Source: Bacillota bacterium (GTDB lineage: Bacteria; Bacillota; Clostridia; Christensenellales; SZUA-584). Taken from it: DNA of 64,000 bases. This document shows positions 10,980 to 54,101 of the stretch, one piece after another. The translations under genes were made by a program, and so were the position numbers. The DNA lies in contig JAEYPO010000016.1 of the NCBI GenBank assembly GCA_023410595.1, positions 17,121 through 81,120 of the forward strand. Direction: 5' to 3'. Positions within the stretch are counted from its first letter, which is position 1. The number at the start of each line of letters is the position of its first letter. The notes beneath the pieces were generated by a model. The model saw only the letters and a program-made list of their open reading frames with translations. It did no database searches and was not told where the DNA came from.

Positions 10980-13001
10980 TCACGGCGTAAGCAGCGCCTT
11001 TGCTATATCGAATTTCACCGTTCCTTTTTCCGCCGCGGTATCCACCATCACGACGACTAATCTGTCGTAATTGCCGTCCATCCAGTACGCCGCATACCAC
11101 GATATCTCTCTCGCTTTGCTCTGGCCTATCTCCGCCGTACCCGTCTTTCCCGCTATCCTTATGCCGGGTATCTTTGCGGTATACGCCGTACCGTGGCTAA
11201 CTACATTCTCCAGCATAGGCAGCAGCGTCTGTACCGTGCTCTGCGAAACCGCGCCTTCCTTCCATACCTCGGGCTGCCTGTCCGTTACTGTAACATAGTC
11301 TATACCTTCCGTGCGCTTAGTTTCCTTAACGAGTATGGGCTTCATCATGTTGCCCGTGCCGTTCGCGAGAGCCGTATACATCACGGCGAGCTGCAAGGGC
11401 GTAACAATCAGGTTACCCTGGCCGTAGCCCATGTCCGCGAGAATCTTCTTGTTTATGCTTTCGTTCTCGTTTTTTATATTCGCATCTTTTACGGGCAGAT
11501 CGAACGGCACCGCTTCATCCATGCCTATACTATCAAGGTATTCTGTGAGTTTCTCTTCGCCCATTTTCATCGCAACATACGCGAAGTATATATTGTCCGA
11601 GCTTTTTATGGCGTTGGCAAGCTTTATAGGCCAGCCTGAATCGCTCACGCGCTTAATATACCAGCCGTTGCCCTCAGGGTACCACTTGTTTTCGGTTATC
11701 GTGCCTTCAAATTCCGTTTCGGGGGTTATTACGCCCCCTTCCAGCGCGGCCGCCGCGGTAAAGGGCTTGATAACGCTGCCCGGAGGGTAGCCGCCTTGCG
11801 TCGCCCACGGGAAAAGCGTCATAGTTTTAAACACGTCTTCAGGCACGGGGAACGTGAACAGGTTATCATCGTATGAAGGGTACGCAGTCATCGCCTCCAC
11901 ATGCCCCGTTTCCGCGTCCATGACTATAGCTACGCCCGTCTGCTCCGGCGTAAGGTAAGTCGTCAGCGCGTTGTACGCCCTTTGCTGCAGCTCGGGCTTT
12001 ATGGTGAGCCAAAGGTCCTGCCCCTGCTCGTCCTTGACTTCATACAACGTGCGTATGTTCTCGCCCCATTTGTTCTCAATATATACTATCTTACCGTCCT
12101 TACCGCGCAGCTGCTCCTCAAACGCCGACTCCAGCCCGGCCTTGCCCGCCTTGTCGGTGTCTTTGTACCCTTCCGGAACGTTTTCCGGGTCAACAAGCCC
12201 GGTGTAACCCGCTATCTGCGCCGCCGCTTCCTTGAGCGGGTAGTTGCGTATGGGCGTGTACATCTTATCGTCAATACCCAGCCCCGGCACGGCTTCTATG
12301 CTCTGCCGCTGCTGCTCAGTAAGCTTGTCGTGGAAATACGCGCCCAAAGGTATCGCCTGCGTGCCGTTCTTTACCGCCTTGTTGAACATGTCAACAAGCT
12401 CCGTCTGCGAAACGCCCGTTATCGGGCTAACCGCCGCCGCGACTGCTCCTATGTCCTGTACCTTAGCAATTTCCATGTATATCGTGTCCGCATAGGCGTT
12501 CTCGGCTATAAGCTCCCCGCCCGCTCCGAACATTTCGCCGCGCTGCGCCTTCAACGTTTTTACGCGCACGCCGCCGCCTTCCTCAAGGTCGGGGAATATC
12601 AGAGAATAGTCCCATAGCACGAGGCACTTATCCTCCTTAAAACCCGTCCTCAGCGTAAAGTCATTGGTAAAGTCTCCGTACTCCTCCGTCTTGTACGTTG
12701 CCGTATACGTAAACACTCCTATGTCGTCCGGGCCCGTTATGTTGTCTATGGATATCTCCTTAACGCCGAGTCCCTCCATTATATCGCTGTATTTCTTTAT
12801 GAACGCCTCTTCCTTTATCTTTACGGCGGGAGCGCAAAGCGAATACATTGTCTTGTAATCCTTTGCCTTGAAGCTCTCAATATATTGCGTTATATCGCTC
12901 TTGGAAAAATCGTAAGGTTTGCCCACCTGCGCGCATGAGCACAAGAAAACGCAGGCAATAAAGGCTGATATAATCTTAATAATACTACGCTTCATTTTCA
13001 T
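10980..13001 (-). CDS. class B penicillin-binding protein (transpeptidase) with lipoprotein signal and NTF2-like N-terminal domain
   Basis: 673 aa. The lipobox is FLCSC. The three transpeptidase motifs are present: SVIKPF (SxxK), SSDN (SxN) and KTGTAE (KTG). Confidence 0.85.
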   Translation of the reverse strand: MKMKRSIIKIISAFIACVFLCSCAQVGKPYDFSKSDITQYIESFKAKDYKTMYSLCAPAVKIKEEAFIKKYSDIMEGLGVKEISIDNITGPDDIGVFTYTATYKTEEYGDFTNDFTLRTGFKEDKCLVLWDYSLIFPDLEEGGGVRVKTLKAQRGEMFGAGGELIAENAYADTIYMEIAKVQDIGAVAAAVSPITGVSQTELVDMFNKAVKNGTQAIPLGAYFHDKLTEQQRQSIEAVPGLGIDDKMYTPIRNYPLKEAAAQIAGYTGLVDPENVPEGYKDTDKAGKAGLESAFEEQLRGKDGKIVYIENKWGENIRTLYEVKDEQGQDLWLTIKPELQQRAYNALTTYLTPEQTGVAIVMDAETGHVEAMTAYPSYDDNLFTFPVPEDVFKTMTLFPWATQGGYPPGSVIKPFTAAAALEGGVITPETEFEGTITENKWYPEGNGWYIKRVSDSGWPIKLANAIKSSDNIYFAYVAMKMGEEKLTEYLDSIGMDEAVPFDLPVKDANIKNENESINKKILADMGYGQGNLIVTPLQLAVMYTALANGTGNMMKPILVKETKRTEGIDYVTVTDRQPEVWKEGAVSQSTVQTLLPMLENVVSHGTAYTAKIPGIRIAGKTGTAEIGQSKAREISWYAAYWMDGNYDRLVVVMVDTAAEKGTVKFDIAKALLTP

Positions 13002-13238
13002 GGGGATATTATACTATGTGCTTTGTGTCATTGTACAGAAATACCCAAAATTAAGGTTTCGAAAGTTTACATTTAACACATCCCCCGCCGGAGCGTCAGA
13101 TGCTTCCATGCCGCGTATTTATTATCATTGCAGCATATAACAGAGTTTTTGTCTGTTTGCTACTATAAATACTATTTAATGTTGTAATATGTAATATATA
13201 TGCTATAATTGGTATAGCATAATCAAGAGGTAACGTAT

Positions 13239-13508
13239 ATGTCGGTAAAAATAGTATCGTGCGATCTGAAAGGCCCCCGACAGTACTACAGGAGCCTTAT
13301 CAGCGCTATTGAAGCGTATGAAAACGTAAAGATGACGGATTCTTTCTGGTTCTTAAACACCGAGGAGGACTGTGATTATATTTATAAGAACCTCGAGATC
13401 TATCTTGAAAAAGACGACCGGCTTCTGATACAGGACCTTAAAGGGGAAGAGATCGTCGGCAGCAACCTTTTATCCACCGAGGAACAGCTGCAAACACTAT
13501 TCCAATGA
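13239..13508 (+). CDS. small hypothetical protein (89 aa) in an AT-rich pocket
   Basis: RBS AGAGG lies 8 nt before the ATG. Upstream are TTGTAA, a 16-nt spacer and an extended -10 TGCTATAAT (about 13178-13208). The gene is compositionally AT-rich compared with its neighbours. I recognise no family. Confidence 0.5.
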   Translation: MSVKIVSCDLKGPRQYYRSLISAIEAYENVKMTDSFWFLNTEEDCDYIYKNLEIYLEKDDRLLIQDLKGEEIVGSNLLSTEEQLQTLFQ

Positions 13509-22145: not shown

Positions 22146-22415
22146 GCCGTGCACCCGGAGATCGAAATAGCGCTACAAGAGGTATCACGGCAGGTTGCTC
22201 TGAGCAGACTTATCCGAGGCACACATCCAAAACCGCTTACTGCTGCTACCGTCAGGTCCTGACAGGGTTCACGGCTGTCCGTTGCACGGGGCCCACTCTT
22301 CAACGCCCCTTACCGTTTCCATACCTTACAACGCTATGCCTCAAACCGGGGATCAAACCCTGCTATAGCGGATTGCAGGTTCAGGGCACCGCTGGCTCCC
22401 CGTCTGGCACGGCAA
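22146..22415 (-). ncRNA. ffs: signal recognition particle RNA, long Bacillus-type with Alu domain
   Basis: The minus strand reads GCCGTGCCAGACGGGGAGCCAGCGGTGCCCTGAACCTGCAATCCGCTATAGCAGGG... This closely parallels the remembered B. subtilis scRNA 5' Alu domain. The domain IV core is GTCAGGACCTGACGGTAGCAGC. The 5' GCCGTGC pairs with the 3' GCACGGC, and a T-run follows. Confidence 0.85.
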
Positions 22416-28497: not shown

Positions 28498-29352
28498 TTA
28501 CTTGCTGGAAATAAGGAAATCGTAAAGGCTCTGCAGCTGGTCCTGATTGTAGTAGGAAAGCGTTATCTTGCCGCGGCGCATATCCCCCGTTATCTGTACC
28601 TTTGTGCCCAGTGCTGAGGAAAGCGCGTTCTGCGCGGATTCTATCTCGGGTATGCTTCTCTTTTGCGGCTTTGGCTTGCGCTGCGCCTTAGTATCGAGAC
28701 TTTTTATCAGCTCTTCGGTGGCGCGCACTGACAGACCGAGCTCCACTATCTTTTTCGCTATTCTTGTTTTCTCTGAGTCGCTCGCAAGCACTACAAGGCA
28801 GCGCGCGTGGCCGCTTGTTATCTCGCCGGAAACGACGAGTTCTCTGACGTCGGCAGGCAGCGACAGCAGCCTGAGTGTATTCGCTATCGCGCTTCTCGAC
28901 ATTCCGAGCCGCTCCGATAAATCCTCCTGCTTTAATTTGTATTCGTCCATGAGCATGCGCATCGCTTCCGCTTCCTCAATAGGGTTAAGATCCTCTCTCT
29001 GCAGGTTTTCCACCAGCGATACTTCCATGAACGCCTGCCGGGAGTATTCCTTTACAACGACGGGCACGGTCTCCAGCCCGGCGAGCCTGGCCGCGCGGTA
29101 ACGGCGCTCGCCTGCTATTATCATGTACCGCTCTCCGCTGCGCTGTACTATTATTGGCTGCACAATTCCGTATGTTTTGACGGACTGCGCAAGTTCGTTA
29201 AGTCTTTCGTCGTCAAACTTCTTTCTCGGCTGGTTCATGTTTGGGTCTATATCGTATACGCTCAGTTCCAGCACGCTGTCCCCCGCGGGAGCGGGCTGCG
29301 TTTCTTCACCAATGAGCGCGCCGAGGCCCTTTCCCAGTCTCTGCTGTTTCAT
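28498..29352 (-). CDS. parB: chromosome partitioning protein ParB/Spo0J
   Basis: ParB boxes LGKGLGALI and ...[31 protein letters not shown]... Start at ATG 29352 overlaps the parA stop (ATGA). The ORF-track start at 29421 lies inside parA. Confidence 0.9.
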
Positions 29353-30125
29353 ACGTTCTCTCCTTCGTTGTATTCTATTACCTCGCCCGCCAGCTCGTTG
29401 TAGCACTGCGCCCCGAGACATGCCGCGTCGTATTTTATCACGGGCAGCCCGAAGCTCGGCGCTTCGCCCAGCCGCACGTTGCGGGGTATTATCGTCCTGT
29501 ATACCTTGTTTTTGAAATACTTCTTCACTTCGTCCACGACCTGAATGGAGAGGTTCGTGCGGCCGTCGAACATCGTGAGCACTACGCCTTCAACCTCGAG
29601 TCCGGGATTCAGGTTCGTTTTGACCAGCTTTATAGTGTTTATTAATTGCGATAAGCCCTCGAGCGCATAGTATTCGCACTGTATCGGCACAAGTATCTTG
29701 TCCGCGGCGGTAAGCGCGTTTACGGTAATAAGCCCAAGCGACGGCGGGCAGTCCATAAATATATAATCGTAATCGTTCCTTATTTCTTTAAGCGCCTGCT
29801 TCAGTATCTGCTCGCGCGCTATCCTCGCTACAAGCTCGACCTCGGCGCCCACGAGATCTATATTTGCGGGTATCACATCGAGCGTATCCACCATCGTACC
29901 TACTATTGTCTGCCGCGGGCTTACGCCGTTGATAAGTATATCGTAAGACGACGTTTTCAGCGTATGCTTGTCGATGCCAAGGCCGCTTGTTGAGTTGCCC
30001 TGCGGGTCAATGTCTATAAGCAGAACTTTTTTCCCTTTTTCGGCGATACATGCGCTGAGGTTCACGGCAGTAGTAGTCTTACCCACGCCGCCCTTCTGAT
30101 TAGCTATGGCTATAACTTTTGCCAT
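29349..30125 (-). CDS. parA: chromosome partitioning ATPase ParA/Soj
   Basis: Deviant Walker [16 protein letters not shown]. Start at ATG 30125 ([13 protein letters not shown]) with a G-rich RBS. The ORF-track TTG is at 30137. Confidence 0.9.
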
Positions 30126-30358
30126 ATTTACCCCCAATAATCATATTGATAAATTTCATTATAAATCAAAAGATAAATATTTGAAAGATAAAAAGTTGCA
30201 CCAGAATTCACATATAGTTTATATTTGGAACGTTGCTTTGGAAAAGCTTGAATGATATTATCACATCGTATATCAGTTAAATTTACGTATACGCTGTTTG
30301 TTTAAAAACGGCGCCGATGTGCAATGCTATATATGACGGACTTAAAGGAAGTGGCTTT

Positions 30359-31072
30359 ATGGAAAAGATACTCGTAGTGGGCGATTCGCTCTCAAAGGGC
30401 GTCACGCTGGATGAAAACAAGAAAAGGTACACGCTGCTTGACGGCTGCTTTTTTAATCTGCTCGCCAAAAACCTGAATGCAGAGATGTACAACGCGTCGC
30501 GTTTCGGCTCGACTATAGTGCAGGGGCAAAAACAGCTTGAGAGCAAATTCGAAAAATACGATCCAGATATAGTGGTGCTCGAGTTCGGCGGAAACGACTG
30601 CGATTTCGCGTGGGACGAGATAGCAAAGGACCCTTCTATAGACCATATACCCAAGACGCCGCTCGACGTGTTTGAGAACATACTCAACTCAATGATAGAT
30701 TATATTAAGAGCAAGGGGAAGAAGGCCGTTGTAACTACTCTTCCTCCCCTTTACGCGGACAGCTACTTTAAATGGTTCACAAACAACGACAGGGAAAAGG
30801 GCTTAAGCATATTGAAGTGGCTCAAGGACGTATGGCACATATACTGGTGGCACGAGCGGTATTCCAACTGCGTGCAGTATATCGCCCGCGAACGCAACAT
30901 TGGCTGCATAGACATAAGGCGCGAATTCTTAAAGCGCAGGGATTTTGCACAGTACATATGCTCGGACGGCATACATCCCAACGAATCCGGGCACAGGCTG
31001 ATATTTGACGCTGCGATAGGCTATATAAAAGAATACGCTTCTTACCTGCTTCCTTCCTGCACTCACGCCTGA
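30359..31072 (+). CDS. SGNH/GDSL-family hydrolase
   Basis: Block I is LVVGDSLSKG, with GGND and a C-terminal DGIHPN catalytic block. Start at ATG 30359 after AGGAAG. Confidence 0.75.
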   Translation: MEKILVVGDSLSKGVTLDENKKRYTLLDGCFFNLLAKNLNAEMYNASRFGSTIVQGQKQLESKFEKYDPDIVVLEFGGNDCDFAWDEIAKDPSIDHIPKTPLDVFENILNSMIDYIKSKGKKAVVTTLPPLYADSYFKWFTNNDREKGLSILKWLKDVWHIYWWHERYSNCVQYIARERNIGCIDIRREFLKRRDFAQYICSDGIHPNESGHRLIFDAAIGYIKEYASYLLPSCTHA

Positions 31073-31147: not shown

Positions 31148-31175
31148 AAAACCGGCAAATACCGGTTTTGTTTTA
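31148..31175 (+). terminator. intrinsic terminator after the SGNH hydrolase gene
   Basis: AACCGG-CAAATA-CCGGTT followed by TTGTTTT. Confidence 0.6.
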
Positions 31176-31185
31176 CACTTGTAAA
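31172..31185. promoter_or_regulatory. candidate BlaI-family operator
   Basis: Perfect inverted repeat TTTACA-CT-TGTAAA containing the TACA/TGTA core typical of BlaI/MecI operators. It lies about 100 nt upstream of the blaI-like ATG. A second imperfect repeat GACGTAAAG...TTTTGCGTC lies at about 31212-31255. Confidence 0.4.
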
Positions 31186-31288
31186 AATTCCATAAAATGC
31201 TTGACACTGTTGACGTAAAGTTGTAGTCTCGTTTTAAAGACGTAAGTTTTGCGTCGTTATATAAAATTATTTGTGGGAGGTGATTATC

Positions 31289-31675
31289 ATGGGCAGATAT
31301 CCCAACCTTACGGAAGCGGACAGCGTGATAATGGAGATACTTTGGCGGGACGGCGAATGCAGCAGTTCGGATATGCAAAAGGAAATTGAAGACAAGCTCG
31401 ACTGGTCGCGGCAGACCGTACGCACTTATCTCGTGCGCCTTGTGGAAAAAGGGCTTGTCGGTACAAAAGAGCTTAGCAAAAGGACGTTCCTGTATTACCC
31501 GAAAGTATCAAAGGCGGAATACGCAGCCGATAAGTCAGGAAGTATACTCAATAGATATTACGGCTCGCTTTCCCATATGGTAGCGGGCCTTTTGCAGCAG
31601 GAAAACGTATCCGACGAAGAACTGGACGAACTGGAGAATCTCATACGCCGCGCACGCAGCAAAGAGGTGAAGTAA
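31289..31675 (+). CDS. BlaI/MecI/CopY-family transcriptional repressor
   Basis: Winged-helix block LTEADSVIMEILWRDGECSSSDMQKEIEDKLDWSRQTVRTYLVRLVEKGLV. ATG 31289 with GGGAGG 8 nt upstream. Confidence 0.85.
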   Translation: MGRYPNLTEADSVIMEILWRDGECSSSDMQKEIEDKLDWSRQTVRTYLVRLVEKGLVGTKELSKRTFLYYPKVSKAEYAADKSGSILNRYYGSLSHMVAGLLQQENVSDEELDELENLIRRARSKEVK

Positions 31676-31677
31676 CA

Positions 31678-34191
31678 ATGGCCGGTATATTTAAGCCGAT
31701 ACTGGAGGCAAGCGTTATGGCGTCCGTTATGATATGCCTGGTGCTGCTCATACGCGCGCTGCTTGCTAGAAGCATGCGTCCGGGCGTAATGCTTATGCTG
31801 TGGGGATTGGTGCTTTTGCGCCTTTTCCTGCCTCTTACTCTTACAAGCCCCGTTAATCTGATAACAATACCGCGGCAATCCACAGCTATAGAGTCGGACT
31901 ATGCGCCCACGGCAGCGCAGGATTTTACGCCTGCAGCTGAAAGCGACGCGAGCGCGCCTCAAATGAGCGCCGTCCGCGGCAGCAGTGATACTGTCGAGCC
32001 TGCAGTAAGAAAGTCCGCTGATACGGGCGGCAGTACAGCGAATGCCCCTGCATGGAACATATCGTATCATATCTGGGACGTAGCTGCCGCAGCATGGGTG
32101 GCGGGCATACTTGCGACGCTGCTGCTGTTCGCAAGAAAGGCGCGTATTTTCTCAAAACACTTAAAACTGTGCGCTCCGGTAACGGACGCCGCAGTGCTTG
32201 ATATGATTCGCCGACACAGCGACGAAGCCGGGATAAGAACGGCCGCAGCCGCGCTTGTATGCGACTTTTTTCACGCCCCTATGGTATATGGGTATTTCAG
32301 GCCGCGCATTCTTATTCCCACCATATTCCTTAACATGGGAAGAGGAAGCCTGGGTGCCATATTGCTGCATGAAGTCATCCATATACGTCGCCGCGACATA
32401 CTTAAGAACTACATATGGCTCGTGGCCAAGGCGCTGCACTGGTTCAACCCGCTCGTATGGCTCGCGTTCGAACTGTACGAAGACGATATAGAGCTGTGCC
32501 GCGATTACAACGTAGCGTATATGCTCAATACTGACGGCGCGTTCGTTTACAGCATGTCTCTGCTCGAAGCCGCGCGGTTATCCCGGCGGACGGCCTATCC
32601 TCCTTCGCAGGCCGTGGCGTTGTTTGAAAGCACTGGCTCTCTTAAAACAAGGATATTCCGCCTCATGAAGCCCGTTAAACATAAAAAAACAGCTGCCATC
32701 CTTTCTGTATTGCTCGCGCTCGTCATGACTGTCACCTGCTTTACGACGGCCTGCCAGCCGACGCCCGTAACGCCGCCTGTACCCAATAAGAACGTCGATA
32801 TAGTTGAGCAGGTCGTGGATGCAAATAAAGAGGAAAACAAGCCGAAACTTAGCGAATATAAACAAGCCGTCGACGAGCAGATAAAAGCACTGGGCTCACA
32901 CCTCGACATGGAGATGCAGCCGAATAAGCAGGTCAAAATAGTCGTGAACGCGGATATCGTCTCGCCGGGAAATATAAAGATACCCGTTATGCGCCTAAAG
33001 CCCAAGAATTTTTCTAAAGAACAGTTTGAAGCGTTTGTGAAATACCTGACAAATGGGGAGCCTCTATATTATCAGACGTTCAACAAGCAGACCGGAGAAA
33101 TGTTTTCCAAAGAGGAAATGACTGCAATAATCGCGCGGATTAAGGGTCTACTTAATAACAAAGACCTTCCGGGCAATACGAGAAGCGCTTGGAAATCGAG
33201 GATCAGAGAAATGGAAAATGCCTACGACGGCGCTCCGACACAATCGGAGGAAAAGCTGTACGATGGCACTCTTACCGTTACACAGAGTGCGGAAGAGGAT
33301 TCCGACGGAACTATTACCTATTATGACAGCGGTTCGTACACAGACTTAAAATGTTATCTGGGAAAAGACAGGGCGGCTTATATAAACCTTATACAGTCCG
33401 AAAAAGAAGCCAGCACCCAGATGGTTTTCGACAACGGCAACTACGGTTTCGGGTACAATACGTTCAAGCCGTACGACGGCGCGGACGCGGAACGCCTGAA
33501 TATGACGTATGAAGAAGCAAAGGCCAAAGCGGAGGAATTCGTGCGTGCAATGGACGGCGAGGACACGAATATGGTGATGCATAGTTCCTCAATAGGGTAT
33601 GACCTTGGCACGATAACAAACTATACGAAGGAAACGTCGCCCCAATGCTATTCGTTCAGCTTTGCGAGAAGCTACAACGGTTTCGTGCTGAAGCCTGTGG
33701 GTCACCTGTGGGGCACACTTGACATGCAAAAGGATTCCGAAGCTTACGCCAAACGGGTAAGTCCTGAAAGCATGTTCGTAACCATCGACGACGAAGGTAT
33801 ATGCAGCACGGGCTGGCTAAACCAGACGGAATATATCGAGACAGTAACAGAGGATACGCCGCTGCTCGATTTCAATACCGTGGTAGATAATTTCGAGCAG
33901 TACTGCAAGCAGAAGTTTACATGGATACCCGACGATGATACGACGCCCCACGGCCTTACGGTATCGTTCAACGTAAAGCGCGTGGAAATGAACCTGATGG
34001 CCATACCAGAAAAAGACAACCTTGAGAACCTCGTTACTGTGCCGGTGTGGGATTTCATAGCAGACGAGGAGTTCGACGACAAGGAAGCCGTCGACGTGGA
34101 GGGGTTTGCGCTGGAAGGGGAAAAAGACATAAGCATAGTAACGGTAAACGCGATAAACGGAACTATTATAAACCGCGAGCAGGGGTATTAA
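31678..34191 (+). CDS. BlaR1/MecR1-like M56 peptidase-domain signal transducer with a large uncharacterised ectodomain
   Basis: 837 aa. N-terminal TM helices precede the zinc-protease motif LLHEVIHIRRRD (HExxH). A further TM ends ...FTTAC, and a ~480-aa extracytoplasmic domain follows. That domain lacks the SxxK/KTG motifs of a penicillin-sensor domain. Confidence 0.8.
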   Translation: MAGIFKPILEASVMASVMICLVLLIRALLARSMRPGVMLMLWGLVLLRLFLPLTLTSPVNLITIPRQSTAIESDYAPTAAQDFTPAAESDASAPQMSAVRGSSDTVEPAVRKSADTGGSTANAPAWNISYHIWDVAAAAWVAGILATLLLFARKARIFSKHLKLCAPVTDAAVLDMIRRHSDEAGIRTAAAALVCDFFHAPMVYGYFRPRILIPTIFLNMGRGSLGAILLHEVIHIRRRDILKNYIWLVAKALHWFNPLVWLAFELYEDDIELCRDYNVAYMLNTDGAFVYSMSLLEAARLSRRTAYPPSQAVALFESTGSLKTRIFRLMKPVKHKKTAAILSVLLALVMTVTCFTTACQPTPVTPPVPNKNVDIVEQVVDANKEENKPKLSEYKQAVDEQIKALGSHLDMEMQPNKQVKIVVNADIVSPGNIKIPVMRLKPKNFSKEQFEAFVKYLTNGEPLYYQTFNKQTGEMFSKEEMTAIIARIKGLLNNKDLPGNTRSAWKSRIREMENAYDGAPTQSEEKLYDGTLTVTQSAEEDSDGTITYYDSGSYTDLKCYLGKDRAAYINLIQSEKEASTQMVFDNGNYGFGYNTFKPYDGADAERLNMTYEEAKAKAEEFVRAMDGEDTNMVMHSSSIGYDLGTITNYTKETSPQCYSFSFARSYNGFVLKPVGHLWGTLDMQKDSEAYAKRVSPESMFVTIDDEGICSTGWLNQTEYIETVTEDTPLLDFNTVVDNFEQYCKQKFTWIPDDDTTPHGLTVSFNVKRVEMNLMAIPEKDNLENLVTVPVWDFIADEEFDDKEAVDVEGFALEGEKDISIVTVNAINGTIINREQGY

Positions 34192-34262: not shown

Positions 34263-34287
34263 AAAAAACCGGCCCAAGGCCGGTTTT
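34263..34287. terminator. bidirectional terminator between convergent genes
   Basis: AAAAAACCGGCC-CAA-GGCCGGTTTT. Confidence 0.65.
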
Positions 34288-34301: not shown

Positions 34302-35513
34302 TTACGGCACCTCAATGTGCCACACTACGTCGCCCGCCTCGCTGGCGCTGTCCGTCGTGTCGTACCACAGTACGTCTTTGCCGTTTACGCCTATAAGCAC
34401 GGCCTTCGTTGTATCGCCTGACAGCGTGCCTGACGAACCGTCCTTGAAGTAATAGATGTGTATCACTTCGTCCTTCGTGTACGCGACGAACCCGTCGCCT
34501 ATATGGTAACTCAGCACGTCCTTTGCTATTTCGACGGGCTGCGAAAGGCTGTCGCCTTCCTTCTTCATATACATCAGCGAGCTGTTTTCATCGCCCGCGC
34601 CGTTTAAAAACACGATATCGTTTCCGTCTATCATCGGATTGTACACATACATGCCGGGCAGATACGTCGCGCGCTGCGTATCCCCGTTGTTTACAAGAGG
34701 AACTATGCTTATCTGTGTATTAAGCGACGCCGACGAGCCTTTTAATATCTGGCTCTCGCCTTCGGGCTGCACGTATATTATCGCTTCGTCCGACATATAC
34801 GGAGCGCTAATCGAGAACGGAGTATTGATAAACTCCTCTATAGTCACGGCTTCTTTAGTCTCAAGGTTGTAAAGGTACAGCTTGTCCGTGCCCGTGCCCG
34901 TCTGCTGCATCCACAGCGCGTAGTTGCCCGACAGCGTTACCTTCGGCTTGCCGAAGAGATACTCCCTTATTACAAACTGTGTGCCCGCCGCCCGGTCGTA
35001 TCCACACAGCGCGCCGCCGTTCTCCATCTTGCAGTCAAGATAAACGATGTATTTATCGTTCATTTTGGGCTCAAACAGGCTGTCGTTCTTCTTTGTGATG
35101 CCCGGAACCTCGTTTAACTGCCCCGACGTCATATCGAATATATCTATTTTGTTTATTTCGGGGGCCGCCTCTGCTTCGTTCCCTGTCGTGAACACGACCT
35201 CCGTTCCATATACAAACGGGTCGTTTATGGATTTAGGAGTAATCTGAAGCTGCGCAGCCTTATCCGAGATGCTGCCTGTAATAACGGGCGTAGCGCTGGG
35301 TGTGGGCGTGTGCGATACTTCGGGAGTCGGCTCGGGTTTCTTGCCGGCAAACAGCGGCACTATAACAAAAATGATAAGCACCGCCAGCACGCCGGCCGCT
35401 GCCAGCGCCAGCCCTCCTATCTTAAGTATAGAACCGTAATCGCGCAAGATCGACCTTCTGCGCCCTCTGCCTCTTAAGCTGCTCCTTCTTCTGTACTTTC
35501 TTCTTGAAATCAC
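34302..35513 (-). CDS. membrane-anchored protein with repeat-rich ectodomain, function unknown
   Basis: Arg-rich N-terminus, one TM helix, a Pro/Thr linker and a ~330-aa ectodomain. Start at GTG 35513 with GGAGG 7 nt upstream. The ORF-track TTG at 35528 overlaps the RBS. Confidence 0.6.
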   Translation of the reverse strand: MISRRKYRRRSSLRGRGRRRSILRDYGSILKIGGLALAAAGVLAVLIIFVIVPLFAGKKPEPTPEVSHTPTPSATPVITGSISDKAAQLQITPKSINDPFVYGTEVVFTTGNEAEAAPEINKIDIFDMTSGQLNEVPGITKKNDSLFEPKMNDKYIVYLDCKMENGGALCGYDRAAGTQFVIREYLFGKPKVTLSGNYALWMQQTGTGTDKLYLYNLETKEAVTIEEFINTPFSISAPYMSDEAIIYVQPEGESQILKGSSASLNTQISIVPLVNNGDTQRATYLPGMYVYNPMIDGNDIVFLNGAGDENSSLMYMKKEGDSLSQPVEIAKDVLSYHIGDGFVAYTKDEVIHIYYFKDGSSGTLSGDTTKAVLIGVNGKDVLWYDTTDSASEAGDVVWHIEVP

Positions 35514-35623
35514 CGGATTAACCTCCAAGTGTTTTTATCCTGAAAACGCAGGTTTGCGGGGTCTTTTTATGTAGCTCAACAAAGCGGACTTATATGACCA
35601 TACTTAATTATATCAAAAATCTG

Positions 35624-36573
35624 TTAATAATCAACCAACTCCCGCTGGTATCTTCTGCTCAGCACCGGTATTTCCGCTTCTTCCCGGGTTTTAAGGAACT
35701 TTACCGACTCGGCGTTGAACTTGGAATATTTCTCTTCGTGCACGAGATGGCCGCAGTTTCGTATGCGTATATGCTTCGAGCCGGGTATTCCGGCATACGC
35801 CCGCGCGGAGCCTAAGTCGTGTATCCTGTCTTCCGTGCCCGAGAATATTAGCGTTTCATTCTTTACGCTTTTAAGCAGCGACAGCGCATACTCGTCGTTG
35901 AAATGCTTCATACAGGAAATCAGCGTCTCCCGTGCCTCTTTGCTGCGCAGCGGCGCATAGTAGCCTTCGACTACTTCTTTCGTCATCTGCGTAGCGTCAA
36001 AGTACGCGCGCTGCAATACGCTTCGCAAGGAAGTTTCGCTTAAATACAGTTTGAAAGCCGCACCGCCAAGCGATGTGGCAAGCAGCCTTAAGCCAAGCGG
36101 GTAACCCGGGCTGGGCGCGCCCGGCGAAACAAGCACGAGCCTATTAGCGCGCTCAGGGTATGCCGCCGCGAAGCATACCGCTATGGCACAGCCCGTAGAG
36201 CAGGCCGCGATATGCGCCTTTCTTATATTCAGCGAATCTAAAAACGCTTTTAATATCAATGCATATTCTTCGGCGGTGTAGTATATATTGGGATGTCCGC
36301 TGTAACCGAAGCCTGCAAGGTCAACAGCTATGACCCTGTATCCTTCGCTTATATAGTAATCAACATTTCTACGCCATGTGTACAACGACTGGCCTATGCC
36401 GTGCACCAGCAGCAACGGCTCGCCTTCGCCTATATCGACATAGTGTATGTCAGTCTCAAAAAAGATGTTTTCCCTGCCGAGTTCGGTGTGTCCTGTTATT
36501 TGAAAGCTGATGCTGGTATACGAGCCTAAATCCCTGCCGTTTCTGAACCGCCGTAGCATGCTGCGCCTGTTCA
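35624..36573 (-). CDS. alpha/beta-fold hydrolase
   Basis: Oxyanion region LLLVHGIGQS, nucleophile elbow ACSTGC (GxSxG-like) and a C-terminal His region NCGHLVHEE. ATG 36573 with GGAGG 7 nt upstream. Confidence 0.8.
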
Positions 36574-36705
36574 TGCTACCACCTCCAACAGTGCGCCGCA
36601 GCACATTTATGTAATTTTCAACACAAATAAGTGTCGTACGGTTATAATACTACGGTTATTTTCACATTACAAGTAAAAATTAATATTTCCGAAATATATG
36701 TAATA

Positions 36706-42407: not shown

Positions 42408-43763
42408 GTGGATACTTTTTTGATACTTTGGGAAAAAGCTTTGGAAATACTGAAGCAAGACCTGGTCAGCGTGAGGTACGACACGTGGATAAAAACACTG
42501 TCTCCGGTGAAGAAATCCGATGGAATCTATTATTTTCAGACACTCAACCCCATACATAAAGAGCTTGTCGAAAAAAGTTACCGTAACATCATAATAAACG
42601 CCATGGACATGGCGATGCAGTCTTTAGGGCTCGACGTTGAAAACATCAGCGTCGTGTTTCTCGATACCGAAGAAGCTGCGAAAATAAAGCAGCCGCAGTC
42701 TTTAGGCGATTCTTCTTCAATAAAAACCACGCTCAATCCCACATATACTTTTGACTCGTTTGTCGTTGGCTCGTCTAACGAGTTCGCGCACGCTGCCGCC
42801 GTCGCGGTCGCGGAAAATCCCGGGCGAACATACAATCCTCTGTTCATATACGGCAAGACAGGGCTTGGCAAGACACACTTGATGCAGGCAATAGCCAACC
42901 ATATATCTGAGAACAAGGAAAGCTATACGGTAATGTTCGTAAAGAGCGAGCCGTTTTTAAATGACCTCATACACGCGATAAGGACTTCAAAAACCGAAGA
43001 ATTCCGCAAAAGGTACAGAAAAGCGGACGTGCTGCTCATTGACGATATACAGTTCATAGCCGGCAAAGAGAGTACGCAGGAGGAATTTTTCCATACTTTC
43101 AATGATCTGCACGAGAACAACAAACAGATCATACTTTCTTCCGACAAGCCGCCGAAGGAGATACCGCTCTTAGAGGAACGGCTGCAGTCGCGGTTTGAGG
43201 GCGGCCTCATAGCCGACATACAGCCGCCGAACTACGAAACTAAGCTTGCGATACTTATTAAAAAAGCAAAAGACATAGCCGCGCGCGACGGGTTTAAGTA
43301 TGAAATAAACCAGGAGATATTGGATCTTATAGCGACGAAGGTGTCTTCCAATATACGCTCGCTTGAAGGCGCGCTCAACAAGATAATAGCTTATACCGTG
43401 CTTAACGGCAGAACGCCCAACGTAATAGAAGCGGAGATTGCTATACGCGATTTTCTTACCACAACGACGACGAAGAAGATATCCGCAAAGCAGATACTGC
43501 AGCTTGTGTGCGAGTATTACGAGATATCCGAAGACGAGATAACGAGCAACAAAAAGAATCAGAACATAGCTTACCCGCGGCAGATAGCGATGTTTTTAAC
43601 GCGCAAGCTAATGGACATGTCGTATAAATCCATAGCCGAGATGTACGGCAAGAGCGATCATACGACCGTAAAGCACGCGTACGATAAAATAGAGCGCGAG
43701 CTCAAGAAAAATCTTGAGGTAAGGACGCTTGTGGATGACTTCATCGCAAAGCTGCGCGAATAG
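42408..43763 (+). CDS. dnaA: chromosomal replication initiator protein DnaA
   Basis: 451 aa with Walker A GKTGLGKTHL, the DDIQF box and the C-terminal DNA-binding end ...DHTTVKHAYDKI. GTG start with GAGGTG 8 nt upstream. Confidence 0.97.
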   Translation: MDTFLILWEKALEILKQDLVSVRYDTWIKTLSPVKKSDGIYYFQTLNPIHKELVEKSYRNIIINAMDMAMQSLGLDVENISVVFLDTEEAAKIKQPQSLGDSSSIKTTLNPTYTFDSFVVGSSNEFAHAAAVAVAENPGRTYNPLFIYGKTGLGKTHLMQAIANHISENKESYTVMFVKSEPFLNDLIHAIRTSKTEEFRKRYRKADVLLIDDIQFIAGKESTQEEFFHTFNDLHENNKQIILSSDKPPKEIPLLEERLQSRFEGGLIADIQPPNYETKLAILIKKAKDIAARDGFKYEINQEILDLIATKVSSNIRSLEGALNKIIAYTVLNGRTPNVIEAEIAIRDFLTTTTTKKISAKQILQLVCEYYEISEDEITSNKKNQNIAYPRQIAMFLTRKLMDMSYKSIAEMYGKSDHTTVKHAYDKIERELKKNLEVRTLVDDFIAKLRE

Positions 43764-43967
43764 TGGACAGGCTGTTTACAAAGGTGGATTAAGATCATTA
43801 AGCCAAAAGAAGTTTTGCACGCGTTTTAATATGCTCATACACGGTGTGTGCAAAAAAACTGTGCGGCAGAAAACATAGAAAGCTCTCTTTCCATGCGGCT
43901 TAAATGGGTTGTCCACGCTATATACATTACTACTATTACTGTTACTACTTAATAAACAAGTGGAAAT
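43762..43967. promoter_or_regulatory. DnaA-box cluster III / predicted unwinding region (oriC, dnaA-dnaN part)
   Basis: Degenerate boxes aGTGGAcAg (43762), gGTGGATtA (43782), TTgTCCACg (43909) and aGTGGAaAt (43959), plus an AT-rich tract up to the dnaN RBS. Confidence 0.65.
43918..43950. repeat. DnaA-trio array
   Basis: The array starts immediately after box TTGTCCACG. The top strand reads CTA TAT ACA TTA CTA CTA TTA CTG TTA CTA CTT. The bottom strand, written 3' to 5', reads GAT ATA TGT AAT GAT GAT AAT GAC AAT GAT GAA. Seven of 11 triplets fit the 3'-[G/A]AT-5' trio motif. The core closely resembles the remembered B. subtilis CTACTATTACTTCTACTA. Confidence 0.6.
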
Positions 43968-44007
43968 ATAATTACACAACAATGAACTTACTTTCAAGGA
44001 GAACGGA

Positions 44008-45111
44008 ATGAAACTGGTCTGTGAAAAGAACGAACTTCAGAAAAACGTAAATATTGTGACAAAGGCCGTAGCGCCCAAGTCGCCCGTATATGTGCTCGAA
44101 GGTGTATATATAAAAGCCGAAGACAAAGGGATAACGATGTTTGGCAGCGACGGCACGCTTTCCATAAAGTGCTCTTTGGAGGCGACCGTACTCGAGCCTG
44201 GAGATATAGTGCTGCCCGCGAGGCTGCTTGCAGAAATACTCGCCAAGTTTGAAGACTGCGAGATATCGATGTATACGGAAGGCAATAACATGATAATGCA
44301 GTGCGGCCATTCCACGACGACGCTGTGTTATATGGACCCGTCCTCTTACCCCGCGTTCCCGGCCTGCGACAGGACAAAGGGAGTTACTGCGTTTTCCAAT
44401 CAGATAGTTTCAATGATAGACCAGACGGTGTTCGCGACGTCGGTGAGCGAAGACAAGCCCATACTTACGGGAATACTGCTTGAATTCGAAAGTGAAAAGC
44501 TTAAAATGGTGGCGCTCGACGGCTACCGTCTCGCCGTAAGGCAGGAAAGGATACAGTCGGGGACGGACGCGGGTGAAGTCGTTGTGCCCTCAAGGTCGAT
44601 GCGCGAGATAGCGCGCATACTGCCCGAGGAAGAGGAGACAGTTAAGCTTTATGCGGGCGACAGCCTTGTTACCGTCGTTTGCGGCGATATAGAGATAGCG
44701 ACGAGAGTGCTTCAGGGCGACTATGTAAAATACAAAAACATACTGCCCACGGAACATACGACGAGGGTAATTATAAACACGCTTAATTTTTTAAGCAGCC
44801 TCGAGCGGGCGAGCATACTGGCGAGGCAGTCGAAGACTAACCTTGTCAACCTCTCCATGGAGGGCTCGCTGATGACTATAACGTCGGATTCTGAGATAGG
44901 CAAGGCGCGCGAAGAGGTGGATATTGCTCTTACTGGAAAGAGCCTCGATATATCGTTCAACTCGCGATACCTGCTGGATGTTTTAAAAGAGGTAAAGGAC
45001 GACGAGATAGTGCTCGATTTGAATACAAATATAAGCCCGTGCATGATACACCCTGTGCAGGGCGGCAGCTTTTTGTATCTCGTACTGCCTGTGAAAACGA
45101 GCAATGGCTGA
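44008..45111 (+). CDS. dnaN: DNA polymerase III beta sliding clamp
   Basis: 367 aa with typical DnaN length and sequence (MKLVCEKNELQKNVNIV...DGYRLAVR...). Immediately downstream of dnaA. Confidence 0.95.
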   Translation: MKLVCEKNELQKNVNIVTKAVAPKSPVYVLEGVYIKAEDKGITMFGSDGTLSIKCSLEATVLEPGDIVLPARLLAEILAKFEDCEISMYTEGNNMIMQCGHSTTTLCYMDPSSYPAFPACDRTKGVTAFSNQIVSMIDQTVFATSVSEDKPILTGILLEFESEKLKMVALDGYRLAVRQERIQSGTDAGEVVVPSRSMREIARILPEEEETVKLYAGDSLVTVVCGDIEIATRVLQGDYVKYKNILPTEHTTRVIINTLNFLSSLERASILARQSKTNLVNLSMEGSLMTITSDSEIGKAREEVDIALTGKSLDISFNSRYLLDVLKEVKDDEIVLDLNTNISPCMIHPVQGGSFLYLVLPVKTSNG

Positions 45112-45164
45112 TAGTATGAAATTACTCAAGGCTCTCTTTTAAGAGGGCCTTTTACATTGATATA

Positions 45165-45420
45165 AAAGCGGGCGGACAGTGACGGTCCTCTATTCGTATG
45201 GGCAATAAACTTCACTGACGTTCGTTTATCACCTCATACCATACAGCTAACGCTAGTCACAGAACATTCATCTCGCTTTATCCGCCACTGGCGGCGCTTG
45301 CTTACGGTTCCGCCCCTATGGATATTAAACAACCACTATTTAATAACTTTATATAAAATAGCACCTCATCCGGCGTTTAGCGCCGCCTTCACCTTTAGGA
45401 GAAGGCTTATGACGTAATAT
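45165..45420. other. hairpin-rich non-coding segment downstream of dnaN (possible degenerate relative of repeats A/B, or an unannotated RNA)
   Basis: Nested complementary pairs GGGCGGA (45173)/TCCGCCC (45311), GTGAC/GTCAC and GTATGG/CCATAC. Local hairpins CCGCC-ACT-GGCGG and CGGCG-TTTAG-CGCCG. No convincing ORF. Confidence 0.3.
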
Positions 45421-45553
45421 ATTTTTTTCAAATGAATTGGGGATTGTCTAAAGAAAAAGAAAGTTATAGTATATAATCGGCATGTTTGTAATTAATTATC
45501 ATTAACGTTACTTTTATTTGATGATTTACTAATAACGATTTTAGGAGAGTTAG

Positions 45554-46942
45554 ATGAAAAAGATAAAACTTATTTATACGGTATTAGTTATTATGTTAAT
45601 AATGACTGCATGTCGGTCTACGCCGGAAGAACCGATTGTAATAGATAAAGGTGATGACAATATGGATTTTGTACAAAGCAATTCCATAAGTACTTCTATA
45701 AGCAGCCAATATCCGTCTAGCTGGACGGAGAAAATACAGAACAACGAAGGATCAGACTTTATAGATATAAATGCGACGGTTAAATTTCCTGCTATCAACT
45801 CAATACCGATAATTTGTGTGAAGCCTCATGCATTCTCACAGGGAGAAGTAGAAAATCTTGTACAATATTTTTCTCAAGGAAAACCTCTTTATTCAACAGA
45901 TGAAACTATGACAAAATCAGATATTGAGATGCACGTAATTGAGTTAAGGGGGATTCTTGAAGAGGCAAAGGATGGGAATGAAGACTTGGGCACACCTGAA
46001 GAAATACAGAAACAGATTGATTCACTTGAAGAGCAATATGAGAATGCTCCTGAAACACGAAATAATACCATAGTTGATTCAACGTTGAAAATACAGCCCG
46101 GAACTTCAAGAGAAGTACTGGATGTGGCTATTGACATAAGTAACGGTGAATATGCAAGAATAAGCCTAATTAATTGCAATGAATCTAATTATAATACCGT
46201 TTTTACTTATCAAAATGGTCAATTATATAAACCGGTGGAAGAGTTATATGGAAAAGACGCTGAAGGACTAAATACTACACTTATTAAAGCCACTCAAGAG
46301 GCAGAAGCAATGTTAAAAAATTTGGGCATAGTTGAATATGAAGCTGTTTCAATAGAGACAGGTGCAAAGCAATTAAACTCAGATAGTCTTGATCTAGAAC
46401 AGCAAGGCTATATTATTAAATATAGGTTGAAGAAAAATGATTTAATGTATTTATTTTGTGAAGGACGAGATTACACCGGTATTACTATTGATGAAAAAAC
46501 GGGCTTTTATGTATATGAAAGTACTAGAGAAATCGTAGAAGAATTTGCACCGACTTGGAGCATCAGCGAAATAAGCATTAATATTGATGACTCTGGTGTA
46601 ACATTTTTTAACTGGAATAATCCTGTTGAAATTGTTGAAAGCATAAGTGATAATGTAGGTCTTTTGCCTTTTAATGAAGTACAGCGAATTTTTACTCAGC
46701 AAATGAAGTCTGCTTATATATATAATAGCAATGGCTTGTTATATCATGTTGACAAGATTGAGCTTGGTTTGGCAGCAACAGCCCATAAAGATAATATCGG
46801 ACAATTTCTAATGGTTCCAGTTTGGATTTTCTATGGATATTGCGAAGATACAAATATGCCGGATGCATATCAAGAAGCAAAAACAAAGGGGTATACATCA
46901 ATTTTAGTGTTAAATGCCGTCAACGGGAGCATAATTAAATAA
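45554..46942 (+). CDS. lipoprotein, paralog of the BlaR1-like ectodomain, encoded in an AT-rich islet
   Basis: 462 aa with the lipobox LIMTAC and RBS AGGAGA. It shares blocks with 31678-34191: INATVKFPAINSIPIICVKPHAFS...GKPLY vs VNADIVSPGNIKIPVMRLKPKNFS...GEPLY. The C-terminal blocks MVPVWIF...LNAVNGSII match TVPVWDF...VNAINGTII. Confidence 0.75.
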   Translation: MKKIKLIYTVLVIMLIMTACRSTPEEPIVIDKGDDNMDFVQSNSISTSISSQYPSSWTEKIQNNEGSDFIDINATVKFPAINSIPIICVKPHAFSQGEVENLVQYFSQGKPLYSTDETMTKSDIEMHVIELRGILEEAKDGNEDLGTPEEIQKQIDSLEEQYENAPETRNNTIVDSTLKIQPGTSREVLDVAIDISNGEYARISLINCNESNYNTVFTYQNGQLYKPVEELYGKDAEGLNTTLIKATQEAEAMLKNLGIVEYEAVSIETGAKQLNSDSLDLEQQGYIIKYRLKKNDLMYLFCEGRDYTGITIDEKTGFYVYESTREIVEEFAPTWSISEISINIDDSGVTFFNWNNPVEIVESISDNVGLLPFNEVQRIFTQQMKSAYIYNSNGLLYHVDKIELGLAATAHKDNIGQFLMVPVWIFYGYCEDTNMPDAYQEAKTKGYTSILVLNAVNGSIIK

Positions 46943-52166: not shown

Positions 52167-54083
<1,917 letters not shown>

Positions 54084-54101
54084 GTTTTGAGGTGAAATAT
54101 A

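Follow-up and report, generated by a model that had tools for sequence, protein, structure and literature searches.

What does a BlaI/BlaR1-type switch, usually taken to be a regulator of antibiotic resistance, respond to when the same chassis carries a different input domain? The question is raised by a two-gene unit in a 64,000-nucleotide (nt) stretch of a Bacillota bacterium genome (assembly GCA_023410595.1, contig JAEYPO010000016.1, positions 17,121 to 81,120; the whole stretch is called the window here and positions are counted from its first letter). A BlaI/MecI-family winged-helix repressor of 128 amino acids (aa) is encoded at 31289-31675 (+), with an ATG start and a TAA stop ending at 31675, and the ATG of an 837-aa M56 membrane protease (31678-34191, +) lies 2 nt past that stop, as had been noted from the DNA alone (the original prediction); translation of the two is probably coupled. 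We consider it likely that the pair is a self-contained, autoregulated BlaI/BlaR1-type module working by regulated proteolysis.

The N-terminal part of the protease (aa 1-335, 31678-32682, +), together with the transmembrane segment (TM4) that follows it, is by profile and fold matches a four-transmembrane (TM) M56 zinc protease of BlaR1-like topology whose catalytic residues are all present. Peptidase_M56 (PF05569) matches aa 8-327 (E 2.4e-45), and an alignment profile of the transducer matches BlaR1 8EXP over aa 3-316 (E 1.8e-29) with the HExxH and ExxxD motifs aligned. Four hydrophobic segments are visible in the hydropathy, TM1-3 at about aa 3-29, 35-57 and 132-153 plus TM4, and the loop at aa 56-130 is disordered. 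The cytoplasmic zinc-protease domain contains H231-E232-x-x-H235 (the HEVIH motif already recognized in the original prediction, aa 231-235; codons at 32368-32382, +), D240, WFNP at 255-258, E272 and D276, all of which are invariant in an alignment of 42 fused homologues. Foldseek superposed the full-length model on BlaR1 8exr_A with a TM-score (TMt) of 0.61 and a root-mean-square deviation of 3.4.

The repressor matches Pfam Penicillinase_R (PF03965) at E 1.9e-29 (102.8 bits against a cut-off of 22.6, profile positions 1-114 of 115), which makes it a member of that family, and MecI 1OKR at E 1.6e-15 over aa 8-122. It comprises a winged helix, with WSRQTVRTYL (aa 39-48) as recognition helix, and a C-terminal helical dimerization domain. 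Curated NCBIfam models scored lower than required for either protein: BlaI_of_BCL 74.2 against 180, MecI_of_mecA 58.7 against 250, CopY (TIGR02698) 71 against 121.95 and, for the protease, blaR1_generic 103.6 against 400 with only positions 3-323 of 585 matched. Because all of these are far below cut-off, the pair is not orthologous to BlaR1/MecR1 or to BlaI/MecI/CopY. The repressor has a single cysteine (C24), its C-terminal part has none, and the CopY metal site CxCxxxxCxC is not present in its sequence; CopY-type metal sensing is ruled out by the missing cysteine motif together with the sub-cut-off score.

The C-terminal part of the protease (aa 359-837 plus stop codon, 32752-34191, +) is an extracytoplasmic domain that the original prediction could assign to no family. 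That claim did not survive: aa 348-837 match Pfam DUF6034 (PF19499) at E 3.1e-47, scoring 162 bits where the gathering score is 27 and covering profile positions 10-481 of 481. An AlphaFold2 model of aa 359-837, built from an alignment of 58 relatives, reached a predicted local distance difference test (pLDDT) of 90.2 and a predicted TM-score (pTM) of 0.90, and places several modules of helix plus sheet after a helical hairpin. The full-length model (pLDDT 81.8, pTM 0.60) has two well-folded halves joined by a low-confidence tether at aa 358-371. As modelled, the ectodomain hangs on a flexible tether, its alpha/beta modules, PepSY/YycI-like in fold, stacked in tandem. Its closest fold in the PDB is 5COZ (EUBREC_2869 of Eubacterium rectale, a gut Clostridium-class organism; Foldseek E 6e-13, TMt 0.55), which differs in being shorter (347 aa), in having no sequence-level match and in being functionally uncharacterized; a literature search found no paper mentioning DUF6034 or EUBREC_2869. 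The best characterized fold relatives are the WalK regulator YycI (2O3O, E 3.8e-5) and the PepSY-containing C-terminal part of YpeB (5BOI, E 5.6e-4); their TM-scores stay low (0.21-0.41), since the superposition covers just a part of the domain stack. The similarity is at the level of fold only, and no PepSY (PF03413), YycI or YycH Pfam match to the ectodomain was found even at E<=1.

That the sensor is not a penicillin-binding domain, as originally proposed, agrees with both sequence and structure comparisons. The ectodomain has no Transpeptidase (PF00905) or related Pfam match, and no penicillin-binding protein (PBP) or class D beta-lactamase was among the Foldseek matches of either the ectodomain or the full-length model. 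The accompanying statement that SxxK, SxN and KTG motifs are all missing was correct for K[ST]G, which is absent from the ectodomain, but not for the other two: SxxK occurs at S392, S503 and S523 and SxN at S665 and S763, in each case by chance and outside conserved columns. The Pfam and structure-prediction checks suggested with the original prediction thus return a named yet uncharacterized family with a PepSY/YycI-like fold, and not a well-characterized or transpeptidase-like sensor.

Evidence for autoregulation comes from the promoter. An inferred -35 hexamer TTGACA (31201-31206, +), with an equivalent site in nearly all of 91 family promoters, is followed after 17 nt by an inferred -10 hexamer TAGTCT (31224-31229, +) that is invariant in a five-promoter alignment; the operon promoter was missed by a consensus scan because this -10 is weak. 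Two candidate operators overlap the promoter. O1, GACGTAAAGTTGTAGTC (GAC-N11-GTC, 31212-31228), spans the spacer and the -10, and O2, GACGTAAgttTTGCGTC (31239-31255), a 17-bp dyad, covers the inferred transcription start; it is near-perfect, being one mismatch off GACGTAANNNTTACGTC, and in locus L008 it is a perfect 9+1+9 palindrome. Within the SRQTV helix class, the dyads conserved over the -10 and start are GACGTAA-N3-TTACGTC and GACGTAA-N3-TGTAGTC, and blocks of GACGTA, TGTAGTCT, GACGTAA and CGTC are invariant when five promoters of the class are aligned. GACGTAA-N3-TTACGTC (<=1 mismatch) lies just downstream of the -10 in 7/7 loci whose repressor has a WSRQTV(R/N)TYL helix (the window, L002, L007, L008, L003, L006a and L009), the genomic contexts of which are otherwise unrelated, and nowhere else in the loci then scanned or in the window.

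The same relationship extends across the wider family. Among 91 distinct BlaI-like proteins with upstream DNA, the promoters almost always combine TTGACA and a 17-nt spacer with an inverted repeat overlapping the -10 or the start site, and the repeat varies among paralogues and covaries with the recognition helix. Thus WN(x)SSYLTYL goes with TCTACAnTTGTAGA, WKYNTYVTY with ACTACAATTGTAA, WSYRTYASYL with ATGATTAcAAT..TAATCAT, WSYTTYASYM with ATTACTATA..TAGTAAT, W(S/Q)YKTYHTYL with ATCTGTCG...CGACAGAT, WSRHTVKTYL with GAGGGA...TCCCTC and WTRHTVKTYL with AGAGTAA...TTACTCT; TTTACAnnTGTAAA is one paralogue dyad type.

The likely mechanism can be set out only by analogy to BlaR1/BlaI and MecR1/MecI. 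A repressor dimer would occupy O1 and O2, covering the -10 and the start of the TTGACA-17-TAGTCT promoter. An extracellular ligand would bind the ectodomain non-covalently, and its signal would pass via TM4 to the cytoplasmic zinc protease, which would cut the repressor in its dimerization domain and so derepress the operon. With low confidence, we suggest that the cue is a peptide, a protein or envelope-derived rather than a beta-lactam; such cues are favoured because the fold relatives work by protein-protein contacts at the membrane.

Several points weigh against this reading, beginning with the fact that each of its mechanistic steps is borrowed. The output may be the operon itself and nothing more: no second repressor target was found in the window, nor within a few kb in related loci, and 12-mers of each blaI promoter sought elsewhere in their own locus gave chance-level matches only. 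The MecI/BlaI scissile pair N101-F102 aligns with G100-L101 of this repressor, the family consensus being [S/C/G]-M, and because the pair is not conserved any cut site must differ in sequence from that of MecI and BlaI. The full-length model does not confidently dock the ectodomain onto the transducer. Finally, a canonical TACAnnTGTA box, conserved in close orthologues, adjoins the promoter and has no part in this scheme. A candidate second operator was rejected: outside the promoter, the O2 consensus is best matched in the window by GAGGTAACGTATATGTC at 13227-13243 (3 mismatches, about 226 nt upstream of a PBP gene), which is within chance expectation, with 5 matches at that level found against 2.66 expected.

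The alternative that survives best refines the two-gene proteolytic switch and does not exclude it. Here the open reading frame would encode a precursor in which Lgt lipidates C359 and signal peptidase II (LspA) cuts before C359, giving a four-TM M56 protease and a lipid-anchored DUF6034 lipoprotein; the released lipoprotein would be a co-sensor or itself the induced product. We regard this as possible, if on the unlikely side. It is prompted by the junction between TM4 and the sensor (aa 336-359, 32683-32754, +), where KKTAAILSVLLALVMTVTCFTTA runs into C359 and QPTP. The full junction reads KHKK-TAAILSVLLALVMTVTCFTTA-C359-QPTPVTPP, with FTTA-C359 as lipobox, and is built like a lipoprotein signal peptide sited inside a protein: an n-region rich in K/R is followed by about 18 hydrophobic residues and then by the lipobox. 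TM4 would also have the orientation of a signal peptide, since homology to BlaR1 TM4 implies N-in/C-out, and the low-confidence tether at aa 358-371 is what usually follows a lipoprotein cysteine.

Conservation at the junction is as strict as at the zinc site. T357, A358 and C359 are invariant in the 42 fused proteins, which share only 15-25% ectodomain identity, with conservation of 90% or more at C354, F355, T356, Q360 and P361; an unbiased search returned the internal lipobox in 27/31 fused-size representatives. Third positions of the four-fold degenerate codons of the motif vary freely across 112 distinct genomic copies, so the constraint acts on the protein and not on the DNA, and DNA-level gene conversion is ruled out as the cause of the invariance. 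Free DUF6034 proteins of about 450-530 aa make up the majority of the family. Those inspected open with classical lipoprotein signal peptides ending in [LSA][AG]C before QPTPE, so that the mature proteins would start at the equivalent of the Cys-Gln-Pro-Thr-Pro of the fused form, and an N-terminal lipobox was detected within the first 60 residues of 96/101 standalone-size representatives. On this comparison, the DUF6034 sensor traces back to a large family of free lipoproteins. Against processing, a literature search for 'internal lipobox' gave no paper, and the conserved motif could instead relay the signal between the sensor and TM4. No documented case is known to us in which signal peptidase II cuts a polytopic protein internally. 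An extended version is somewhat more doubtful still: the M56-DUF6034 precursor would be split by Lgt and LspA, and free DUF6034 lipoproteins, including one encoded at 45554-46942 in the window, may plug into the same transducers.

Whichever way the junction works, the proposed two-gene module belongs to a large family with a mosaic history. In a first protein search, about 40 of the best matches had the M56-DUF6034 architecture, and when 1.84 billion cluster representatives were searched with the ectodomain by phmmer, 1401 relatives passed E<=1e-3 and 384 passed E<=1e-10. In a species-representative genome collection, 100 stretches fit a degenerate DNA pattern for CFTTACQPTP, almost all from Bacillota metagenome-assembled genomes (Christensenellaceae, Oscillospiraceae, 'Clostridia'), with two under other titles (one Cyanobacteria, one Rikenellaceae); a protein-pattern scan of genome contigs with a single protein returned no match. 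Motif-bearing copies number 8-9 in single assemblies (for example contig CAXXTQ010000001.1 and assembly JAEYLC), and tandem BlaI and M56-DUF6034 pairs occur four in a row in L005 (2512-14472) and three in L006 (5613-14661), each pair with its own operator type. In the window and the fetched loci together, tblastn gave 101 BlaI-like matches, 97 of them with an M56 gene directly 3'; no other gene consistently adjoins the pairs across the loci examined. Proteins P0006-P0019 are 54-61% identical to the window protein in the M56 core and 15-22% in the ectodomain, whereas P0122-P0148 are 20-33% identical in the core and 41-53% in the ectodomain; among free lipoproteins, identity to the window ectodomain rises as high as 57%. 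Core and ectodomain identities diverge in opposite ways, and the sensor and transducer therefore have separate histories. These comparisons indicate that protease and sensor modules are shuffled among family members in Christensenellaceae and other Clostridia.

A different operator was named in the original prediction, namely the palindrome TTTTACAcTTGTAAAA at 31171-31186, within which TTTACACTTGTAAA occupies 31172-31185. It exists as described, and TTTACAcTTGTAAA is the sole TACAnnTGTA box in the 64-kb window, against 0.47 expected. TACAnnTGTA is the operator core of BlaI and MecI, and the helix motif QTVRT resembles KTIRT of MecI. The same core is known for the operators of CopY-type repressors (PMC7253601). 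The palindrome is kept in the syntenic orthologues L002, L007 and L008, the last at 71% protein identity, where its flanks are kept as well though DNA further upstream has diverged. However, it is sited upstream of the -35, with its centre about 57 nt 5' of the inferred transcription start, and a repressor bound there would leave RNA polymerase unobstructed. This position is atypical: TACA-type boxes in the family overlap the -10 and stand exactly +23 from the -35 start in 25/29 cases, and only in the window's orthologue group do they lie upstream of the -35. The palindrome is also absent from L003, L006a and L009, which have the WSRQTV(R/N)TYL helix and GACGTAA dyads. It is probably not the cognate autoregulatory site, given that the helix class covaries with GACGTAA dyads over the -10 and start, and we hold it unlikely that this box is the operator for this repressor. 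It resembles operators of other paralogue classes and is possibly a site for a paralogous repressor whose gene lies elsewhere in the genome (cross-regulation) or an UP-like element.

It is similarly improbable that DUF6034 is the product of the switch and not its sensor. The module would then make a surface lipoprotein, such as a binding or immunity protein, and the M56 part would answer another cue or merely turn over the repressor. In keeping with this, pairs have no conserved effector gene beside them and no second operator copy nearby, and most DUF6034 proteins are free lipoproteins, with arrays of at least six genes: in L109 (49-10511), six consecutive genes have a Pfam match, one of them weak, and a 457-aa gene without a match lies among them. 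Some DUF6034 genes adjoin ATP-binding cassette (ABC) exporter genes (L001, L038 and others). On the other hand, the C-terminal extracytoplasmic domain of BlaR1 is its sensor and DUF6034 holds the equivalent position here, and the shuffling of ectodomains between transducer classes is what would be expected of exchangeable input domains.

Exporter genes also accompany some of the pairs. A cluster of two membrane proteins (about 255 and 310 aa, no Pfam match) and two ABC ATPases lies 3' of the pair in 7 loci, L038 (1328-5910), L089 (2821-5980), L041, L046, L061, L054 and L009, with a CARDB protein added in L038 and L041. A terminator-like hairpin separates the M56 gene from the cluster in 4/7 intergenic regions (L054, L089, L038 and L046), and a separate promoter-like region with direct repeats ATTACAA-N5-TTACAT precedes the exporters in L089, L038 and L041, downstream of the hairpin in L089 and L038. 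No exporter genes adjoin the window pair, and an ABC exporter therefore cannot be counted as its output.

A true BlaR1/MecR1 or CopY orthologue sensing beta-lactam or copper, for which family-level homology of both proteins and a PBP2a-like class B PBP 18 kb away could be cited, is very improbable in view of the curated-model scores, the single repressor cysteine, an ectodomain in which neither sequence nor fold points to a transpeptidase or class D beta-lactamase domain, and the lack of adjacent beta-lactamase or cop genes.

The proposed proteolytic module shares with BlaI/BlaR1 and MecI/MecR1 of Staphylococcus aureus and Bacillus licheniformis an adjacent, co-directional repressor and M56 transducer in one operon. 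The transducer resembles BlaR1 and MecR1 in its four TMs, cytoplasmic HExxH/ExxxD zinc protease and C-terminal extracytoplasmic domain, and the repressor resembles BlaI and MecI in its winged helix, helical dimerization domain and, as inferred here, autoregulation through promoter dyads. It differs from these systems in its sensor, which is DUF6034 (PepSY/YycI-like) and not an acylatable fold of the PBP/class D beta-lactamase type, in the internal lipobox at the TM4-sensor junction, in the GACGTAA-type operator half-sites, in the non-conserved N-F scissile pair, in the lack of a resistance gene and in having several to many paralogues per genome. YycH/YycI and YpeB, like the ectodomain, are extracytoplasmic, membrane-tethered stacks of alpha/beta modules, and regulate a membrane signalling protein or a hydrolase, their partners being the kinase WalK and the lytic enzyme SleB. 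They have no detectable sequence similarity to the ectodomain, and a kinase or a lytic enzyme, not an M56 protease, is their partner. Pairs of M56 and BlaI-family proteins without a PBP sensor, and with an unknown signal, have been described as Rv1845c/Rv1846c of M. tuberculosis, BlaIR of M. abscessus and PvmSR of P. aeruginosa (bioRxiv 10.64898/2026.08.03.742534). The window pair resembles them in that beta-lactams would not be sensed through a PBP domain; unlike those pairs, which are without any sensor domain, it has an ectodomain of about 480 aa that is predicted to be well folded, and its family is expanded in Clostridia.

M56 transducers with a DUF6034 sensor are annotated in databases and are not known to have been studied. 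A specialist would not have foreseen the invariant internal lipobox, the module shuffling or the covariation of helix and operator over dozens of paralogues. The BlaI and M56-DUF6034 family occurs in gut and anaerobic-digester Clostridia (Christensenellaceae and relatives), with at least nine motif-bearing copies in single assemblies, and its covarying helix/dyad pairs are raw material for a DNA-recognition code of the BlaI/MecI/CopY fold and for orthogonal genetic parts. DUF6034 itself gains a first structural and contextual description, as a PepSY/YycI-like, lipoprotein-derived domain that has been shuffled between transducers. Were the internal lipobox processed, it would be an unusual route to a two-part sensor and the first case of a BlaR1-type system whose lipoprotein sensor can detach; it would also be, to our knowledge, the first internal signal peptidase II site in a polytopic protein. 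If free lipoproteins plug in as well, the result would be combinatorial lipoprotein-based sensing in which the repressor/operator pairs, dozens of them, are mutually orthogonal.

A terminator-like hairpin lies on either side of the operon. The first, AAAACCGG-caaata-CCGGTTTT (31148-31169), was found by scan and in the sequence, lies 3' of a GDSL-hydrolase gene (30317-31072) upstream and abuts the palindrome, and is not kept in L008, unlike the palindrome. The second, AAAAAA-CCGGCC-caa-GGCCGG-TTTT (34263-34287), was read from the sequence and is absent from the automated hairpin scan listing; it appears bidirectional, closing the operon and being common to the pair and a convergent gene. A ribosome-binding site, GGGAGG, was read at 31275-31280 (+), 8 nt 5' of the repressor ATG. 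The convergent gene (34302-35528, -) encodes a single-pass membrane protein of 408 aa of unknown function whose N-terminus is rich in Arg; besides its one TM helix it has a Pro/Thr-rich linker and a large extracytoplasmic domain. Neither Pfam nor PADLOC gave a match to it, and the gene is syntenic in L002, L007 and L008. An alpha/beta hydrolase gene (35624-36604) follows downstream. No cop gene adjoins the pair, nor does any beta-lactamase or PBP gene, the latter in agreement with the original prediction, which also correctly placed the class B PBP gene about 18 kb away (10980-13001, -). This PBP consists of MecA_N, PBP_dimer and Transpeptidase domains, the NTF2-like MecA_N domain giving it a PBP2a-like architecture.

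The window covers a chromosomal origin region, with parB and parA (minus strand), dnaA, dnaN, gyrB and gyrA (28498-30137, 42408-45111 and 52176-56597), and the sensor pair is located between parAB and dnaA, an arrangement retained in L002, L007 and L008. PADLOC returned no defence-system match for the protease or either DUF6034 protein of the window. A bacterial large signal recognition particle RNA at 22147-22412 (-; RF01854, 185.8 bits) is the sole Rfam match in the window, with nothing in the operon leader or in 45112-45553. The free DUF6034 gene (45554-46942, +; 462 aa, Pfam E 7.3e-56) lies directly 3' of dnaN, and its product is 26% identical to the M56-protein ectodomain and has a classical lipoprotein signal, MKK...IMTAC before RSTPEEP (MKKIKLIYTVLVIMLIMTAC followed by RSTPEEP); neither a GACGTAA nor a TACA dyad was seen on reading the DNA upstream of it. 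The dnaN-DUF6034 intergenic region (45112-45553) is unusually long (about 440 nt) and contains GC-rich segments (for example GGGCGGACAG...), and GC-rich hairpins resembling those found there also occur upstream of the blaI gene of L008.

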